Positions 2,957 to 63,837 of a stretch of DNA of 64,000 nt are shown one piece after another. Both the position numbers and the translations under genes were made by a program. The notes under the pieces were generated by a model that did no database searches, was not told where the DNA came from, and saw nothing but the letters and a program-made list of their open reading frames with translations. Source of the stretch: Candidatus Woesebacteria bacterium (GTDB lineage: Bacteria > Patescibacteriota > Microgenomatia > UBA1400 > UBA12108). The stretch spans positions 2,530-66,529 of the forward strand of contig JAGOVG010000005.1 in NCBI GenBank assembly GCA_018060845.1, read 5' to 3'. Positions within the stretch are counted from its first letter, which is position 1; each line of letters opens with the position of its first letter.

Positions 2957-4954
2957 TTAAGTCTCAGCGACTACAGACTTAACCGGCAACTTCCATGCCG
3001 CCCACTTACACTCCGGGTACTTCTCGCACCCATAAAACTTGCCCTTCCTGCTCTTCTTTATCACTACTCTCCCACCACACGTAGGACACAGATTCGCTCC
3101 CGCATACTCTACATACTGCGCCTTATAATCACATTCAGGATATCTATTACATGAGAGGAACTTGCCAAACTTACCTGTTCGGATTATGACCTCGCCCTCC
3201 TTACATTTGGGACATTGCTCACCCGTTGACTCGACCTGGACCTTTACCCTTTCACCTTTTTCCTCAACTAGCTTTACTGTCTCATTCATCGGCGTCCAGA
3301 ACGACCTAACCACATCGACCCACTTCTTTTTCCCATCTGCTACCGCATCTAGGTCTGACTCCATCCTGGCGGTAAACTCATACGCCATCACGTTCTCAAA
3401 GTTAGCAGTCAAAAACTCGACAACTGCAATCCCGACTGCAGTCGGGTGGAACCGCTTTTCTTCTTTGGTCACATAACCCCTGTCCTGGATCGTGCTGATA
3501 ATCGCCGCATAGGTGCTAGGCCGGCCGATCCCTCTCTTCTCTAGTTCTTTGATCAGCCCTGCCTCGCTATAGCGAGCAGGTGGCTGGGTAAACTTTTGAG
3601 TTGATTCGACTTTGATTAGCGGTAATACCTCACCGCTTGTTACTTGTGGTAGGAATACATCGTCTGCACTCTTGCCAAGTTTCATATACCCATCAAAGAT
3701 CATTCGCTTACCATCAGCCTTGAGCTCATACATTGTTGCATTGTTGCTCTGTTGCGTTGTTGCACTTACCAATATTGTCGTTTTATCAAATCGAGCATCC
3801 TGCATTTGGCACTGCATAAATCTAGTTCGGATCAGCTCATACAGCTTTTTGTCCCTACCCTCTAGCTCTGGAGATGCACTCACGTTTGTCGGTCTTATCG
3901 CCTCATGAGCTTCTTGGGCGCTCGCAGCCTTAGTTTTATATACCCTCGGAGCAGGTGGTAAATACTCAGCACCAAATGAGCTTAATATGTAGCTCCTAGC
4001 AGCCTCAACCGCTTCTGTCGCTAGATTATATGAGTCTGTTCGGTGGTAAGTAATTAATCCTCGCTCATAGAGTGACTGTGCTATCTGCATAGTCTGCTTG
4101 GCAGAGTATCCAAACATATTAGATCCAGCTCGCTGCAGTAGCGAGGTAGTAAATGGTGGCTGAGGTGAGCTTTTTTGCTCCTCATTACTAACTCCTAATA
4201 CAGTATAGGTCGCCTCTTCTAGGTCTTTTACGACCTTGCCTGCAGTTTCACTATTATTTATTTTCGCGGTTTTACCATCTATCCTTACTAGTTCGACCCT
4301 TAGTTCTCTTTCACCTTGTCCCTTGTCGCTTGTCCCTCCCACTGATCTAAGATCAGTAAAAATCTCCCAATATTCATCCGCAACAAAAGCGTTAATCTCT
4401 TTTTCTTTATCGACGATTAGTCGGACAGATACCGATTGGACACGCCCAGCCGATAACCCTCTCCTCACCTTTTTCCACAGTACCGGCGAGAGTGTGTAGC
4501 CCACGAGCCTATCTAGCACCCGACGTGCCTGCTGCGCATTCACTAGATCCATATTAACCACACCTGGGTGGTTTAATGCTTCAAGTATCGCGGTCTTGGT
4601 GATTTCATGAAATGTTACTCTCTTGAACCTTGTCCCTTGAACCTTGTCCCTACTATCTGACAGCAAATACTGGACATGGTAAGAGATCGCCTCTCCCTCG
4701 CGGTCTGGGTCAGTTGCCAGATAGATGATGTTGGCTTTTTTTGCTAATGCCTTAAGCTCAGACACTCGCTTCTTTTTTGAAGATAGTACCTGATAGTTAG
4801 GCTCAAAGTCATGGTCTACATCAATAGCTAGTCCGCCACCTTTTTCTGGTAGATCACGGATGTGTCCCATCGACGCTTCGATCGCATACTCACGTCCGAG
4901 GAACCTCGATAGTGTCTTAGCTTTGGTGGGTGACTCAACAATTACTAAATCCAT
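2957..4954 (-). CDS. topA: DNA topoisomerase I
   Basis: 665 aa. Toprim N-terminus (VIVESPTKAKTL...HIRDLP). Catalytic Tyr region. C-terminal Zn-ribbon repeats (CPKC...C..C). Confidence 0.9.
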   Translation of the reverse strand: MDLVIVESPTKAKTLSRFLGREYAIEASMGHIRDLPEKGGGLAIDVDHDFEPNYQVLSSKKKRVSELKALAKKANIIYLATDPDREGEAISYHVQYLLSDSRDKVQGTRFKRVTFHEITKTAILEALNHPGVVNMDLVNAQQARRVLDRLVGYTLSPVLWKKVRRGLSAGRVQSVSVRLIVDKEKEINAFVADEYWEIFTDLRSVGGTSDKGQGERELRVELVRIDGKTAKINNSETAGKVVKDLEEATYTVLGVSNEEQKSSPQPPFTTSLLQRAGSNMFGYSAKQTMQIAQSLYERGLITYHRTDSYNLATEAVEAARSYILSSFGAEYLPPAPRVYKTKAASAQEAHEAIRPTNVSASPELEGRDKKLYELIRTRFMQCQMQDARFDKTTILVSATTQQSNNATMYELKADGKRMIFDGYMKLGKSADDVFLPQVTSGEVLPLIKVESTQKFTQPPARYSEAGLIKELEKRGIGRPSTYAAIISTIQDRGYVTKEEKRFHPTAVGIAVVEFLTANFENVMAYEFTARMESDLDAVADGKKKWVDVVRSFWTPMNETVKLVEEKGERVKVQVESTGEQCPKCKEGEVIIRTGKFGKFLSCNRYPECDYKAQYVEYAGANLCPTCGGRVVIKKSRKGKFYGCEKYPECKWAAWKLPVKSVVAET

Positions 4955-59641: not shown

Positions 59642-59931
59642 ACTAATTACCCTCTTTTGTGTGTCCCGGGCCATACTTAATCTCTCCGCCATTCGCAATA
59701 AGAGTCCTAGACCCTATCGTTCCTTCGGGACTAATTTTAGGCGCGAATATTTCACAAAGAAAATTCGGTAATCCCAAAAACACTAAAGTTTTGTAAATCC
59801 ACATACTTTCTGGTTCAACTGCATTTGTCATGATTATCCTTTAGCAAAAGAATTATATATTTGTGCGTACCATTTACACACAAAAAGCTATTTTACACCT
59901 CTCTCACAACTTGTCAACAACATTGCAAAAT

Positions 59932-60387
59932 CTATTTAAACAACTCAGCCTTACCCTTTACTGCCTTATCAATCGCATCTAACATACTCCCCGAGTCTCT
60001 GGGAGATTGCCAGATCACATTGCTAATGGCTCCAGCCAATTCTTGAATATTTCCTGCACGCACATGGCGGTAATTTTTCAATACTATCTTACTAGCGAGA
60101 GTGTCAGCGTCTTTCTTAACAGTTTCAAATACCTTTTTGTACTCACCCTCAGATCTTACTAAGAGATGTACCGCGTTAGCACTAGACAGATATAATAATA
60201 AGAGAGCATTTTCATCATGGTTCAGATTAAAACCATCTGTATCAGCCACCATCATTAAGATTGTTGAGATGTTGCCAACCCAACCAAACGCGTCTACTTC
60301 ATCTGTAGGTATACTCCTAACCGAATCAACGTATGCCTGCCCTAAGACAGTTGCTAGCGCCAACACACCCTCAATATTTATGCTCAT
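59932..60387 (-). CDS. Hypothetical protein (151 aa)
   Basis: ORF only. Confidence 0.3.
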   Translation of the reverse strand: MSINIEGVLALATVLGQAYVDSVRSIPTDEVDAFGWVGNISTILMMVADTDGFNLNHDENALLLLYLSSANAVHLLVRSEGEYKKVFETVKKDADTLASKIVLKNYRHVRAGNIQELAGAISNVIWQSPRDSGSMLDAIDKAVKGKAELFK

Positions 60388-60479
60388 TTTGTATCATTCT
60401 CCATATTGACATAGTATAAGAGAGGTGTATTATATCCTATATTATTAGTAAATACACATTAAATATATAAGGATAAAAT

Positions 60480-61052
60480 ATGTACTTCGCACCCGCTGTA
60501 AAAGAACAAGCAAGCTATCACGAAATAAATACATCAGATCAGAGCGTAGATTCATTCGCTAGTGTTGCACTACTGCTTCCCTTGTTTAACGAGAGGCTCA
60601 AAAATTTTGATCTAAATGATGTTTTAACATGGGCTGCAGGTATTACAACAGGATTAATAGTTATTTATCTAGCATCAGCGGTCAAAGAAAATAACGAAGA
60701 ACCTAGGCGTAAAGGCCAAAGTCTAGATGAATTTTCCTTAGATACAATGGAGCCAGGAAAAAGAAGGCATAGCATGGAAACCAAACTTAACACAAAACTT
60801 AAAAATAATGCAGATCAATTAACGGACAGTGAAAAAGAATACATAGCTAACTTAAGACCTGATCAAATATCAAAACATCTGAAACATCTCATATCCCACG
60901 CAGTCGAACTCGAAAGCATAATGAGGTCTAATGATATTCACAATGGATTCAACCCAAATATGGACTCACGCAGAAATCAAGCATTCAATAATTATAGAGG
61001 CACAACGACCCAAATCAAAAAGGCTATCCAGCCATCACGCTTTAAGAAATAA
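60480..61052 (+). CDS. Hypothetical protein with one TM helix
   Basis: ORF only. Confidence 0.3.
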   Translation: MYFAPAVKEQASYHEINTSDQSVDSFASVALLLPLFNERLKNFDLNDVLTWAAGITTGLIVIYLASAVKENNEEPRRKGQSLDEFSLDTMEPGKRRHSMETKLNTKLKNNADQLTDSEKEYIANLRPDQISKHLKHLISHAVELESIMRSNDIHNGFNPNMDSRRNQAFNNYRGTTTQIKKAIQPSRFKK

Positions 61053-61107
61053 TAGACAGAGTACTATTATGTTACTTTAGTTCTCTACTTAAGCTATAAT
61101 TGTAAGG

Positions 61108-62520
61108 ATGAAAAAGCACGACCACATCTACCGCCCCCTCGTCTTCTTTGCGACCATCCTCTTTGTCCTCGTCGGCACCTACTTTGTCATCCGCTACGCC
61201 AAGGGTGATCGCCTAGGCCAGACTGGCGTCGTCAAAGGGACCGGCCTCCTCTCTGCCAACAGCTTCCCGACCAGTGCTCAGGTCTATATCGACGGCAGGT
61301 TAACCACAGCTACCGACAATACCCTCAACCTCGATCCAGGTACCTACAAAATCGAGATCAAAAAAGACGGCTACCACACCTGGTCAAAGAGTGTCGCTAT
61401 AGCTGCTGAGTTAGTAACCCCCACTAACGCCCAGCTCTTTCCCACTAGCCCGACCTTGGAGCCACTGACTTATACTGGCGCCGAGAACCCGACCCCCAGC
61501 GCCGATGGTAACGCTCTAGCTTTTACTGTTGCCTCCGCTTCTGCTAGCACCAAAAACGGACTATATGTCCAGGATCTCAGTAGCAGCCCAATCAGCCTCA
61601 ACAAAAATGCGCGTCAGATCGCCCAGAATACGAGCGAGCACAACTATAGCCGCTCAAAGTTTGTCTTCTCGCCCAACAGCAGCGAGATCTTGGTCTCCTT
61701 TGATTCTGGTGCACACCTCCTCCTTGATGCTAGTCGCTTTAACAACCCTCAGGATCTCCAGGATGTGACCTGGAACCTCAGCTCTATCCTCAATGATTGG
61801 GAACTAGAGATGGCGCGCACCGAGCGAGTGAGGCTACTCGAGCTCCCTATCTTCTTTCAGGAGATCGCAACCGAGAGCGGCAAGCTAACTAACCTCTACT
61901 TCTCCCCCGACGGCAAAAAGCTCCTCTACCAGGCGCTCCAAGAGATCGAGATCCCAATCGGGTTGATCCCTCCACTACCTGCCACAAGTAGTCAGGTAGA
62001 GTCCAGGAAAATCTCTCCCGGTAACTGGTATATTTATGACATTGTCGAAGACAAAAACTTTGCCATTGCCAGTGGAACTATTGCAACACCGAGTCCAACC
62101 CCAACCCCCAAAAATAACAAAAAAATAACTACTCCTCAGACACCTGTCGCCGCGATCTCCAAACTCATGTTGCTAGACAATCTCTCCCCAATCCCCGCCG
62201 AGACTACTAGTAGTCCCAGTGCCTACCGCAAGCTCCAGGACAATGTATCTCGCGAAACTACACTCGCCCTCATCTCCGCCCAATACTCCTCGATCTACAT
62301 CGACTCTGTCCAGTGGTATCCTGACTCCGCTCACCTCATCCTCCACTCAGATAACAAAATCGAGATCGTCGAATATGACGCCACCAACAAAGTAACACTC
62401 TACGATGGACCCTTTGATAGTAGTATCGTCTACCCTTGGCCAGACGGAAGTAAAATAATTACAAGAATTGGTTTTTCAGAAGGGACCGTGCCTAATTTAT
62501 ATACAATTAAACTAAAATAG
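61108..62520 (+). CDS. Membrane-anchored PEGA-domain protein with a probable beta-propeller (TolB-like) C-terminal region
   Basis: N-terminal TM. PEGA-like segment (VYIDGRLTTATDNTLNLDPGTYKIEIKKDGYHTW). Confidence 0.5.
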   Translation: MKKHDHIYRPLVFFATILFVLVGTYFVIRYAKGDRLGQTGVVKGTGLLSANSFPTSAQVYIDGRLTTATDNTLNLDPGTYKIEIKKDGYHTWSKSVAIAAELVTPTNAQLFPTSPTLEPLTYTGAENPTPSADGNALAFTVASASASTKNGLYVQDLSSSPISLNKNARQIAQNTSEHNYSRSKFVFSPNSSEILVSFDSGAHLLLDASRFNNPQDLQDVTWNLSSILNDWELEMARTERVRLLELPIFFQEIATESGKLTNLYFSPDGKKLLYQALQEIEIPIGLIPPLPATSSQVESRKISPGNWYIYDIVEDKNFAIASGTIATPSPTPTPKNNKKITTPQTPVAAISKLMLLDNLSPIPAETTSSPSAYRKLQDNVSRETTLALISAQYSSIYIDSVQWYPDSAHLILHSDNKIEIVEYDATNKVTLYDGPFDSSIVYPWPDGSKIITRIGFSEGTVPNLYTIKLK

Positions 62521-62527
62521 TATCACC

Positions 62528-62562
62528 CCTGCCCGCAATGCTACGCATAGCGTTGCAGGCGG
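62528..62562. repeat. Family R2 small hairpin repeat, copy B (cctgcccgcaatgctacgcatagcgttgcaggcgg). It sits between two copies of the PEGA gene's 3' tail.
   Basis: Alignment. Confidence 0.5.
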
Positions 62563-62570
62563 ACGCATCC

Positions 62571-62620
62571 AGTTCTCCGAAGGCACCATTCCTAATCTGT
62601 ATACTATCAAGTTAAAATAA
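62571..62620 (+). repeat. Diverged duplicate of the PEGA gene's last 16 codons (QFSEGTIPNLYTIKLK*, versus GFSEGTVPNLYTIKLK* at 62472..62520)
   Basis: Peptide near-identity with ~9 synonymous DNA differences. Confidence 0.55.
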
Positions 62621-62642
62621 CCTAACGTCCCGGTAGTTCAAC

Positions 62643-62677
62643 GGATAGCCCAGCTGCTCGCGAGCGGCTGGGTCCTA
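62643..62677. repeat. 35-bp direct repeat DR-left (ggatagcccagctgctcgcgagcggctgggtccta). It contains the near-perfect 22-bp palindrome CCAGCTGCTCGCGAGCGGCTGG and is preceded by a tRNA D-arm-like segment.
   Basis: Identical 35-mer at 63024..63058. Confidence 0.6.
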
Positions 62678-62684
62678 AACCTAT

Positions 62685-62930
62685 ATGTATTACGTCTATA
62701 TCATTCAAGATGAAAAGAACAAGCTATATGTCGGCTACTCATCAAACTTGCGTCAAAGATTCAAAGCACATCTTCTAGGCAGCACGCATACCACTGCAAA
62801 TTTTTTAAAGCCCAGACTAATATACTACGAAGCATACGAATCTGAGCAGCTTGCTAGGGATAGGGAAACAAAACTAAAACAGTATGGCTCAAGTTATACA
62901 GGACTTCTCAAGCGACTTGGGTTAAAATAG
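62685..62930 (+). CDS. Small GIY-YIG nuclease-domain protein (81 aa)
   Basis: YVYIIQDEKNKLYVGYSSNLRQRFKAH is a GIY-YIG motif with the conserved Arg. Confidence 0.6.
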   Translation: MYYVYIIQDEKNKLYVGYSSNLRQRFKAHLLGSTHTTANFLKPRLIYYEAYESEQLARDRETKLKQYGSSYTGLLKRLGLK

Positions 62931-62938
62931 ACTCAATA

Positions 62939-63010
62939 GCTCCCATAGTTTAACGGATAGAACAGAGGTTTCCTAAACCTCTAATCCAAGTTCAATTCTT
63001 GGTGGGGGCA
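62939..63010 (+). tRNA. tRNA-Arg (anticodon CCT)
   Basis: Acceptor gctccca/tgggggc (one G-U). Anticodon stem gaggt/acctc with loop uuCCUaa. T-arm ccaag-TTCAATT-cttgg. Confidence 0.75.
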
Positions 63011-63023
63011 CAATATTTTCAAT

Positions 63024-63058
63024 GGATAGCCCAGCTGCTCGCGAGCGGCTGGGTCCTA
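63024..63058. repeat. 35-bp direct repeat DR-right, identical to 62643..62677. It is followed by a second, related palindromic hairpin (ccagctcttcgcgaagggctgg).
   Basis: Exact repeat. The second hairpin has compensatory C-G to T-A changes. Confidence 0.6.
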
Positions 63059-63103
63059 TCCAGCTCTTCGCGAAGGGCTGGACAATTCCCGGTCGGGACA
63101 CCA

Positions 63104-63361
63104 TTACGCTTTATCTTCTTTGAATTTCAATGCTGTAAATATTGAGACTATGTCAGGAACGTATTCTGGGTTAGCGATAACCTGCTGATTTTCACGACTT
63201 AGATCAAATTCATGACAAAAAACCTTAATAGAGTCAGAAATAGAACCTGCGGTCTCACCATCTAGTCTTTGAATCTCTTTAACCTCTTCAGTAGTCATTG
63301 TAAATCGACCAATATGCCCAGGCTCATCACGAAAGAGCGTTCGACGATCAATTATATTCAT
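63104..63361 (-). CDS. Hypothetical protein (85 aa)
   Basis: ORF only. Confidence 0.3.
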   Translation of the reverse strand: MNIIDRRTLFRDEPGHIGRFTMTTEEVKEIQRLDGETAGSISDSIKVFCHEFDLSRENQQVIANPEYVPDIVSIFTALKFKEDKA

Positions 63362-63363
63362 AT

Positions 63364-63837
63364 TTACTTCCCTCGCTCAAAATCGGAGTAGATCAAGCAC
63401 TCTTCGGCATTTTCGTACTCAAATAGCTCTTTGTCTGTAAAGATTAAGCTGATTTCTTTTTTGGCATTATCTGGCTCGTCAGAAGCGTGGATCAAGTTTT
63501 GGCTCCCGCTCATAGCGTAGTCACCGCGGATACTACCGGCTTCGGCATCATACCCTTTGGTTACGCCCACGATCTTACGTACGGCAGAAACTGCCTCCTG
63601 CCCTTCCCAGACCATAGCTACGATTGGGGTCCAGGTCATAAAGGCTTTTAGATCTTTAAAGAATGATTTGTCTTTGTGGTGAACATACCAGGTATCTAGT
63701 AGCTCGTCAGTCAGCCTCATCATCTTAAGACCAATAAGCTTGAGACCTTTGCGCTCAAACCTCTGCATTATTGCTCCAATGAGCCCACGTTGTAATCCAT
63801 CTGGCTTAACTAGTACGACTGTTCTCTGCATTGACAT
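63364..63837 (-). CDS. ndk: Nucleoside diphosphate kinase
   Basis: RTVVLVKPDG...NLIHASD (NxxHxSD active-site His motif). Confidence 0.85.
   Translation of the reverse strand: MSMQRTVVLVKPDGLQRGLIGAIMQRFERKGLKLIGLKMMRLTDELLDTWYVHHKDKSFFKDLKAFMTWTPIVAMVWEGQEAVSAVRKIVGVTKGYDAEAGSIRGDYAMSGSQNLIHASDEPDNAKKEISLIFTDKELFEYENAEECLIYSDFERGK

Follow-up and report, generated by a model that had tools for sequence, protein, structure and literature searches.

At one locus of a 64-kb stretch of DNA from Candidatus Woesebacteria, a member of the Candidate Phyla Radiation (CPR), a small gene for a GIY-YIG nuclease and a complete tRNA-Arg(CCT) gene are enclosed between the two ends of another tRNA-Arg gene. 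Hereafter, the whole 64-kb stretch is referred to as the window. We consider it probable, though far from certain, that the nuclease gene and the enclosed tRNA gene form a selfish homing-type replacement cassette, which has split the resident tRNA-Arg(CCU) gene and supplied a substitute for it. Judging from sequence comparisons, the process would be nuclease-driven homing, with short palindromes at the locus being either REP-like colonists or the nuclease's own site.

The cassette and its empty counterparts

The initial annotation of this DNA described two identical 35-bp direct repeats, each containing a near-perfect palindrome and each preceded by a segment resembling a tRNA D-arm, on the two sides of an 81-aa GIY-YIG gene and a tRNA-Arg gene. 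All of these features are present. The 35-mer (GGATAGCCCAGCTGCTCGCGAGCGGCTGGGTCCTA) has exact copies only at 62643-62677 and 63024-63058 (no others in the window at up to three mismatches, and none in 100 shuffles), and the full repeat is 41 nt long (62637-62677 and 63018-63058, 40 of 41 positions identical). Between the two copies lie the 81-aa open reading frame (ORF; 62685-62930), identified with Pfam, and tRNA-Arg(CCT) (62939-63011), called by ARAGORN and scoring 62.5 bits with Rfam. A protein on record for Candidatus Woesebacteria is 100% identical to the ORF product. The 22-nt palindrome with one T.G mismatch found in each repeat in fact extends over 24 nt (62649-62672 and 63030-63053), and the second, related hairpin reported after the right repeat is a third 24-nt palindrome (T-CCAGCTCTTCGCGAAGGGCTGG-A, 63059-63082). 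Folded as single-stranded DNA, the palindromes form a 10-bp stem with a CGCG loop. The window contains one GIY-YIG gene and three palindromes, all of them at the cassette. The layout is identical in L001, which is an independent assembly, and is therefore not an assembly artifact.

The evidence for a split resident gene comes from relatives in which the same site is empty. These were reached via orthologues of the upstream gene, which codes for a PEGA-domain protein. In L175/L176 (PEGA protein 90% identical to that of the window) and L177/L178 (73%), a spacer and a single intact tRNA-Arg(CCT), GTCCCGGTAGTTCAATGGATAGAACAGAGGTTTCCTAAACCTCCGATCCAGGTTCAATTCCCGGTCGGGACA (GTCCCGG...CCGGTCGGGACA), come after the PEGA gene, and neither a GIY-YIG gene nor a palindrome is present at the PEGA locus of these four. 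The first 22 nt of this allele match window positions 62627-62648 (21/22) and its last 18 nt match 63083-63100 (18/18). Thus, the cassette is flanked by the 5' and 3' ends of the tRNA-Arg gene resident in this lineage. The tRNA within the cassette shares with the resident allele only 59 of 72 positions and is identical to the tRNA at the PEGA locus in L002, L003 and L179; it is a foreign allele, native to other Woesebacteria. The locus, bounded by the PEGA gene and NDK, is occupied in the window, L001, L002 and L003 and empty in L175-L179, and it holds a relic in L180/L181. In other words, presence of the cassette is polymorphic at one conserved locus among relatives, as is typical of homing genes.

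Comparison with the intact resident allele makes it possible to read the locus from left to right on tRNA coordinates. The 5' end of the resident gene (nt 1-22, GTCCCGGTAGTTCAACGGATAG; 62627-62648, plus strand) has an acceptor strand unlike that of the cassette tRNA (GCTCCCA). It is followed by the first copy of the palindrome designated hp1 (CCCAGCTGCTCGCGAGCGGCTGGG, 62649-62672), which connects position 22 of the tRNA (D-loop/D-stem) with position 33 (anticodon loop) and replaces the 10 nt in between (AACAGAGGTT). Junctions of this class also occur in L001-L005, L007, L008, L023, L068, L107 and L071. A remnant of the anticodon loop and the 3' anticodon stem (TCCTAAACCT, 62673-62684, plus strand; tRNA positions 33-42) directly abuts the nuclease start codon, an arrangement shared with L001-L003 and L008. 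Eight nucleotides past the stop codon of the nuclease gene (62685-62930, plus strand) begins the intact cassette-borne tRNA-Arg(CCT) (GCTCCCA...GGGGGCA; 62939-63011, plus strand). The right junction (63012-63029, plus strand) consists of AATATT and a resident D-loop piece (TTCAATGGATAG, nt 11-22), after which come the second, identical copy of hp1 (63030-63053) and TCCTA (63054-63058). The third palindrome, hp2 (TCCAGCTCTTCGCGAAGGGCTGGA, 63059-63082), connects the resident tRNA's anticodon loop with its T-loop: the right flank of hp2 resumes at tRNA position 55, the stretch between the two loops is replaced, and the join resembles those seen in L020, L022, L059, L068, L109, L112, L134 and L148. 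The remaining 3' end of the resident gene (CAATTCCCGGTCGGGACA; 63083-63100, plus strand) comprises the T-loop, the 3' strands of the T-stem and acceptor stem and the discriminator; it matches L175 and L177 and is complementary to 62627-62633 in the manner of tRNA acceptor strands (left flank GTCCCGGTAG..., right flank ...CAATTCCCGGTCGGGACA). The cassette itself extends from about 62649 to 63017, in the order 24-bp palindrome, short leader derived from a tRNA anticodon arm, nuclease ORF and tRNA-Arg(CCU).

The nature of the direct repeats follows from these assignments. The D-arm-like segment ahead of each 35-mer is the D-loop of the second, resident tRNA-Arg allele. Each 41-nt repeat, as aligned to the tRNA sequence, consists of a broken tRNA-Arg D-loop piece, the 24-bp palindrome and the anticodon-loop piece TCCTA. 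The repeats are thus not terminal repeats of the cassette or a target-site duplication; they combine a wrecked tRNA fragment with an independent palindromic element. At the right junction (GGGGGCAC-AATATT-TTCAATGG) the sequence is similar to that downstream of the same tRNA in L179 (...cactcAATATTCAATca), which suggests that the incoming DNA may have been joined to the resident D-loop through the microhomology TTCAAT.

Two other explanations of the tRNA-derived flanks were considered. One is that the repeats are attL/attR scars of an integrase-mediated element targeting a tRNA gene, and direct repeats derived from a tRNA do flank inserts at tRNA genes in many genomic islands. However, the insert is only about 380 bp long, domain searches found no integrase or recombinase domain in the cassette or the neighboring ORFs, the repeat covers the region from D-loop to anticodon, in which a palindrome has taken the place of 10 nt, rather than the 3' part of the tRNA, and the tRNA is restored at neither junction. 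We therefore regard an integrase scar as very unlikely. The other explanation treats 62627-63103 as one tRNA-like gene, from which the 381-nt insert with the nuclease gene and tRNA is removed as an RNA intron. Bacterial tRNA-Arg(CCU) genes are known to harbor group I introns, the insert is positioned at the anticodon loop, and the joined flanks fold into a 7-bp acceptor-like stem with a long rod and a UCCUA loop (-47.4 kcal/mol, z -4). Yet the rod forms only because any two of the palindromes are mutually complementary, and joining the flanks leaves a molecule without the D, anticodon and T stems that the intact resident tRNA has in relatives. An Rfam cmscan with E values up to 10 gave the tRNA as the sole plus-strand match, with no intron model there; a minus-strand match to Intron_gpI (63123-63391) scores 13 bits against a gathering score of 50 and is a chance match. 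The remnant ends in ACCA in the window (63100-63103), so that the joined flanks mimic a tRNA with an encoded CCA. This depends on one base, since both L001 and L175 read ACAA, and is a coincidence. Altogether, an interrupted tRNA gene is exceedingly improbable.

The nuclease gene, its relatives and its inheritance

Based on the Pfam match, the 81-aa product is a GIY-YIG protein (PF01541, 57.2 bits with a cut-off of 22.6, E 2e-15), and its catalytic motif residues Y5, Y15, G17, R25, H29 and E61 (Tyr of the GIY motif, Tyr and Gly of YIG, Arg, His and the metal-binding Glu) are invariant among 40 homologues. The AlphaFold2 model (mean pLDDT 94) represents a bare GIY-YIG domain, having the elements of the beta-beta-alpha-beta-alpha fold (E2-8, E14-19, H22-31, E44-51, H54-66 and H68-77). 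The closest solved relatives, ranked first and second by Foldseek, are the UPF0213 proteins 1zg2 (BH0048, E 2.8e-11) and 1ywl (EF2693, 4.4e-8); the nuclease domain of Slx1 comes next, and UvrC is lower on the fold list. By its closest relatives in sequence and fold, as well as by its single domain within the range of 80-100 aa, the protein is of the UPF0213/YhbQ type (COG2827). The identity to the solved members, which equal it in size and in single-domain architecture, is only 21-28%, and the CPR family differs from them by a conserved C-terminal helix of its own (GSSYxGLLKRLGLK) and by its invariable linkage to a tRNA gene and the palindrome. To our knowledge, such linkage is not a described property of YhbQ-type genes. 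Searches of NCBIfam, PHROGs and PADLOC with the protein returned marginal matches only, and no viral relative was found. A domain search found no HUH (Y1) domain in the gene flanked by the palindromes.

To characterize the family more broadly, we considered 29 further loci found by scanning one genome per species. They span Microgenomates/Woesebacteria, Parcubacteria, Saccharibacteria and Doudna-, Uhr-, Buchanan- and Curtissbacteria. In all 29, a tRNA gene on the same strand adjoins the nuclease gene, and the distance from the end of the ORF to the tRNA gene downstream is normally between a few and about 100 nt; 26 of these tRNAs are Trp(CCA), and there is one each of Arg(CCT), Cys(GCA) and Thr(UGU). 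The majority of the loci also have a palindrome-interrupted 5' fragment of the same tRNA within 100 nt before the start codon, and several (L008, L018, L024 and L031) have a palindrome-bearing 3' fragment after the intact tRNA. The nuclease of L008 is 60% identical to that of the window, yet the locus shows the full window layout built from three different tRNA-Arg alleles: remnant, palindrome, anticodon piece, ORF, tRNA, D-loop piece, palindrome and 3' remnant. Bracketing of the nuclease gene and tRNA by direct repeats is common to the window, L001 and the distant L008. At the nuclease loci, palindromes occur near 29 of the 35 tRNAs adjacent to a GIY-YIG gene and near one of 16 other tRNAs (Fisher 2e-7), and the palindrome always ends 12-35 nt upstream of the nuclease start codon.

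A neighbor-joining tree places the Arg-associated genes in a single clade within the Trp-associated ones, and the Cys and Thr cases in another Trp clade; hence, the cassette has changed its tRNA locus several times. Different stages of decay are represented as well. In L109, where the ORF has an internal deletion, the palindrome is found in the downstream tRNA copy and the upstream one is intact; the related L112 has the opposite arrangement. Truncated nuclease genes are found in L025, L031, L032 and L160, and a 17/18-nt relic of the ORF end (cgacttgggataaaatag) immediately precedes tRNA-Arg in L180/L181. This pattern of gain, decay and loss is as expected of homing genes.

Inheritance of the nuclease gene was compared with that of its flanks. 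Identity of PEGA proteins groups the loci as ((window, L001), L175), followed by L003 and then L177, with L002 and L179 further out, and loci with and without the cassette alternate across these groups. When the window is compared with L003, the proportion of synonymous differences (pS) amounts to 0.75 for both PEGA and NDK (saturated) and 0.44 for the GIY-YIG gene as measured on 53 synonymous sites (dS 0.65). Thus, the two nuclease genes parted far more recently than their hosts. Between the window and the empty L175, pS is 0.56 for PEGA and 0.42 for NDK, which would make the window/L003 nuclease split about contemporary with, or later than, the split from this empty relative. The comparison points to horizontal entry of the nuclease gene, and the foreign tRNA inside the split resident allele would represent co-conversion, the two together being the expected signs of a homing gene. 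The dN/dS ratio of about 0.1 and the invariant catalytic residues speak for a working protein; the nuclease gene is under purifying selection and is not decaying. Taken together, the empty sites, the match of the flanks to the resident allele and the younger nuclease gene fit the mobile, homing-type cassette or tRNA-gene scar proposed in the initial annotation.

The same annotation had named the opposite case, a housekeeping YhbQ/UPF0213-type protein next to this tRNA in all relatives, with the repeats absent or unrelated there. One part of this description applies, as the protein is of that type and stands beside a tRNA in every relative that has it; the other part does not, because the palindromes are present there too. 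A housekeeping explanation would hold that a conserved UPF0213 protein is co-transcribed with the tRNA, that the fragments come from hairpin-provoked tandem duplication or slippage, that the palindrome is a regulatory RNA or DNA hairpin (insulator, terminator, 5' stabilizer or operator) and that nothing is mobile at present. The nuclease gene is syntenic in L001-L003, it shows purifying selection and vertical inheritance since the window/L001 split, the protein has no DNA-binding domain, and both the consistent spacing of the palindrome before the start codon and the terminator-like look of many stand-alone copies (see below) would suit a regulatory element. Nevertheless, the closest relatives are empty and have a different intact tRNA allele whose ends flank the window cassette, the cassette is younger than its flanks and has switched from tRNA-Trp to Arg, Cys and Thr loci, and pseudogenized copies exist. 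A scan of 62300-63400 revealed no terminator-like site and no promoter-like site on the plus strand, and the hairpin mismatches show no sense-strand G.U bias. On balance, we find this explanation unlikely.

Some observations concern the family beyond the cassette itself. More divergent GIY-YIG paralogues, on separate deep branches of the tree, share these tRNA neighborhoods: they are located 3' of tRNA-Trp in L010 (2928-3185), L017 (2899-3165) and L028 (3003-3278) and 18 nt 5' of tRNA-Tyr in L018 (920-1159); another is in L011 (4115-4357). Many of the metagenome-assembled genome records bearing the cassette (L009, L010, L012, L013, L015, L016, L019, L021, L026, L027 and L029-L031) are titled 'uncultured Gammaproteobacteria' or 'Pseudomonadales', which, given their content, looks like taxonomic mislabelling of CPR-type genomes. 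In L002 (2925-2965 and 3228-3268) and L003 (1633-1675 and 1935-1975), the direct repeat flanking the ORF begins in the stop region GTTAAAATA[AG], common to the ends of PEGA (...KLK*) and GIY-YIG (...GLK*) genes, and continues through the spacer to tRNA nt 1-22. The nuclease family natively ends in GLK*, and PEGA in the empty relatives natively ends in KLK*. This coincidence of 9-10 nt may have provided the microhomology for a move of the cassette from a tRNA-Trp locus to the PEGA locus.

The palindrome as a dispersed element

The initial annotation had recommended a search for more copies of the 35-mer. No others turned up in the window; it is the 24-bp palindromic core that is widespread, with hundreds of further sites, the majority lacking a nuclease gene close by. 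The family follows the pattern CC[AC]GC-NNN-TCGCGA-NNN-GC[GT]GG, and a metagenome search with one subset of palindrome variants yielded at least 120 loci. Among the matches listed, most are on CPR-like contigs of low GC content, and roughly three in four copies are perfect palindromes. A GIY-YIG gene of the nuclease family is nearby in only about 12-16 of these 120 loci and then lies 12-200 nt from the palindrome; GIY-YIG (11 loci) is the only gene family clearly enriched next to it. Many stand-alone copies are situated between an A-run and a T-run and resemble bidirectional terminators. Examples of stand-alone copies are L066, L080, L087, L114, L133 and L143, many of them inside longer perfect palindromes or A-run/T-run contexts; other stand-alone copies are flanked by TTGAC...TTGAC or TCAAC...TCAAC duplications.

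We analyzed target-site duplications with the element fixed at 24 nt, as the T...A of a T-N-N-A target pairs with itself and outward extension of the palindrome masks a 4-nt repeat. An exact 4-nt direct repeat flanks 27 of 174 copies (2.6 expected), and none is longer than 4 nt. The duplicated words include TCCA (10), TCAA (7) and TTGA (3), indicating a T-N-N-A target. Such a fixed-length duplication is a property that miniature inverted-repeat transposable elements show. On tRNA coordinates, the junctions fall into four recurrent classes: simple insertion into the anticodon loop with duplication of TCCA (at least 10 loci), insertion into the D-loop, a D-loop joined to an anticodon loop, as at hp1 of the window and also in Trp and Ile genes, and an anticodon loop joined to a T-loop, which resembles hp2 and also occurs in Trp and Cys genes. 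From their sequences, we infer that the two joined classes would be the expected product of recombination between two inserted palindromes.

The arms of the palindrome evolve in concert. Five of the ten stem pairs have changed on both sides, 95.5% of the cells are paired, and cells with changes on both sides number 55 compared with 26 +/- 3 in shuffles (0 of 500). Dispersed hairpin-forming repeats with co-varying arms are likewise characteristic of REPtrons. The most variable pair (7-18) has seven T.G and seven C.A mismatches with no strand bias; the symmetry must therefore be at the level of DNA and does not derive from an RNA of one strand. These data bear out the compensatory changes noted initially, as the arms always co-vary, although they fit a hairpin or cruciform, or copying from arm to arm, better than the plain site of a dimeric protein proposed at the same time. 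A sense-strand RNA hairpin was considered and is unsupported for the same equality of mismatches, and no known RNA family was found for the hairpin, Rfam included. A phage source was also rejected: the 22 matches of a looser pattern to viral contigs in IMG/VR are chance-like, with non-complementary variable arms and GC-rich coding context, and served as a negative control.

The dispersal of the palindrome raises an alternative resembling REP/RAYT systems, in which the GIY-YIG protein mobilizes 24-bp palindromes, and the cassette moves or duplicates by cutting and rejoining, or by a site-specific-like exchange, at them. The direct repeats would then be two recombination sites, and the association with tRNA genes would result from preferred T-N-N-A targets in tRNA loops. 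This alternative accounts for identical palindromes bracketing the cassette in the window, L001 and the distant L008, for the sharp 4-bp duplications, for the recurrence of the same junction classes in Trp, Arg, Cys and Ile genes and for GIY-YIG being the sole enriched gene family. Co-variation without strand bias fits a DNA hairpin or cruciform substrate, the structure-specific nuclease Slx1 is among the nearest structural relatives, and there are GIY-YIG restriction enzymes, such as Eco29kI, whose cleavage sites are palindromes rich in GC. At the same time, most of the listed palindromes have no nuclease gene nearby, no palindrome exists outside the cassette in the window, and the repeat exceeds the palindrome by 12 nt on its left side and by 5 nt on its right, neither of which an exchange confined to palindromes needs. 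As far as we know, characterized GIY-YIG enzymes leave 2-nt overhangs and not the 4 nt implied by the duplication, and we know of no GIY-YIG transposase of this kind. Overall, this alternative seems possible but rather doubtful. Still, the bracketing in the window and L008, the junction classes, the 4-bp duplications and the Slx1-like fold fit it at least as well as they fit homing, and the two readings are compatible with each other.

Under homing, which we prefer, the nuclease would break DNA in or near a cassette-free tRNA gene, or at the palindrome, and repair would copy the palindrome, leader, ORF and tRNA from the incoming DNA, with tRNA sequence serving as homology arms. The cassette tRNA would take over the function, and the broken resident copy would be redundant because the cassette supplies a working tRNA. 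Palindromes could then colonize and erode the broken copy by inserting at T-N-N-A in the D, anticodon and T loops, and recombination between palindromes would delete the intervening stems. The duplicated block of D-loop, palindrome and anticodon loop might originate from such recombination or from gene conversion between neighboring copies. With an indispensable tRNA immediately downstream of the ORF, the host is probably compelled to transcribe the latter.

Several points weigh against this scenario. Clean homing alone does not produce a 41-nt duplication and an extra step is needed, which could be an illegitimate right junction followed by gene conversion between neighboring copies, or an exchange at palindromes. 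The cassette tRNA is identical to that of the empty L179; with the tRNA gene itself as target, the cassette would be exposed to its own nuclease as well. Site-specific homing enzymes such as I-TevI have a second, DNA-binding domain; none was detected in the 81 aa with Pfam or in the AlphaFold2 model, and there is no room for one because the catalytic domain fills the entire length. About 87% of the listed metagenome palindromes have no GIY-YIG gene within 2 kb, and L071, L148 and L159 contain palindrome-bearing partial tRNA duplicates without any ORF. The signal of horizontal transfer rests on the 53 synonymous sites mentioned above. Between the window and L001, dS is about equal for the GIY-YIG gene (0.42) and PEGA (0.47), which implies vertical inheritance under purifying selection since these two split, and such long inheritance under selection could be compatible with a role beneficial to the host.

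The L071 locus may be described separately. On its minus strand (3380-3760), an intact tRNA-Ile(TAT) lies between two partial copies of itself, each with a palindrome at a D-loop-to-anticodon-loop junction, and no ORF is present. The D-loop of the upstream fragment contains two copies of a different mini-palindrome (TCAGCC-NNN-GGCTGA). Palindrome-bearing tRNA duplicates are thus possible without a nuclease gene.

Surroundings, related systems and implications

Changes at the locus are not restricted to the tRNA gene. The 3' end of the PEGA gene is also replaced: its last ~90 nt (62431-62520) are 64-73% identical to L175, compared with 84-96% just upstream. The displaced resident end is found after the stop codon (62522-62528 and 62566-62620, about 97% identical to L175), where an imperfect hairpin of 37 nt, 'X' (62529-62565), breaks it up. 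Between the two copies of the last 15 PEGA codons, almost all differences are at synonymous sites. The PEGA end and the tRNA share one logic, in that the insert supplies a substitute for what it displaces. The same composite of a PEGA end copy, an X-like hairpin and a second PEGA end copy occurs in the distant, GIY-free L179 (3930-4015). In L004, an X-like hairpin (CAATGCTTGAGCATAGCGATGCAGGCGGG, ~2829-2870) immediately follows tRNA-Trp and overlaps its 3' end, and the left edge of X in the window (CACCCCTGCC) resembles the 3' end of tRNA-Trp; X may represent a second family of small mobile or terminator-like hairpins. Compared with L001, the PEGA gene, cassette and NDK are about 90% identical in DNA, while the region upstream of PEGA (59685-61100) and that of the small ORF between the cassette and NDK (63104-63377) are not alignable (~50%). 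This ORF codes for 85 aa in the window, 124 aa in L001 and 95 aa in L175, with no Pfam match in any of them. There appear to be hypervariable small-gene slots beside conserved genes.

Among known systems, the functionally closest by analogy would be the free-standing GIY-YIG homing genes of T-even phages (Seg family), such as segB in the tRNA gene cluster of T4. As in Seg, the GIY-YIG gene is intergenic, not within an intron, and stands beside tRNA genes; its presence varies among relatives, and a neighboring marker, here the tRNA allele, is co-replaced. Seg proteins, however, exceed 200 aa and have DNA-binding modules, whereas the cassette protein has 81 aa and the catalytic domain only. The cassette is on a CPR bacterial chromosome and not in a phage, it brings along an entire tRNA as a substitute, with the resident copy left wrecked, and it is associated with a dispersed palindrome.

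Other systems resemble individual parts of the arrangement. REP elements and their RAYT transposases likewise combine short, dispersed, intergenic GC-rich palindromes, often terminator-like and co-varying so that the hairpin is preserved, with a small nuclease gene flanked by them. The differences are in the enzyme, which is HUH/Y1 in RAYTs and GIY-YIG here, and in the palindrome, which here is a perfect 24-mer with a 4-bp flanking duplication and, at nuclease loci, is mostly inside tRNA-derived sequence. Yeast mitochondrial GC clusters and the Neurospora PstI palindromes that flank tRNA genes are also tiny GC-rich mobile palindromes in AT-richer genomes, with short target duplications and a location near tRNA genes. 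Fungal mitochondrial genomes with GC clusters are rich in GIY-YIG and LAGLIDADG homing genes, but the sequences are unrelated, the setting is organellar and there is no fixed nuclease-tRNA cassette. Integrative elements such as tRNA-targeting islands and the e14 prophage in icd bring a replacement end for the target gene, and the displaced resident end persists as a diverged direct repeat, as does the PEGA 3' end here. In contrast to them, the cassette has no integrase, replaces the whole tRNA and not only its 3' end, and is an insert of a few hundred bases.

For the CPR, GIY-YIG ORFs have been described in non-intron insertions of 16S and 23S rRNA genes; in the judgment of the authors, they are sparse and have no homing context (PMC11270868). 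That study, which mentions neither tRNA nor palindromes (no occurrence of either term), shares with the present case the CPR host and a GIY-YIG ORF inserted in a structural RNA gene outside group I and II introns; its loci are rRNA genes and ours is a tRNA gene. A literature search found no account of the arrangement of GIY-YIG gene, tRNA and palindrome in CPR bacteria. By the sequence comparisons above, the arrangement is systematic across a major bacterial radiation, and we infer its mechanism.

With considerable reservation, we suggest a broader view, in which the UPF0213-type GIY-YIG protein and the 24-bp palindrome constitute an unrecognized CPR mobile system. The nuclease would act on hairpin or cruciform DNA, spread the smallest known mobile palindromes into T-N-N-A sites in loops, and maintain its own gene as a cassette that destroys and replaces an essential tRNA gene, so that the host can neither silence nor lose it (addiction by tRNA replacement). 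If so, this would be the first concrete biological role for the large UPF0213/YhbQ family. The 81-aa protein together with the 24-bp palindrome or the 72-bp tRNA gene forms a defined testable pair, and a nuclease of such small size that is specific for a structure or site and has a defined short partner in DNA could have practical interest. The findings also bring together three subjects so far treated separately, namely the UPF0213/YhbQ nucleases, the pieces of tRNA genes that mislead tRNA annotation, and short palindromes rich in GC. CPR genomes are tiny and usually have one gene per tRNA. An element that overwrites single tRNA genes with its own copy, if our interpretation is true, would represent a distinct survival strategy for mobile DNA and a way for tRNA alleles to be exchanged horizontally among bacteria otherwise regarded as poor in classical mobile elements.

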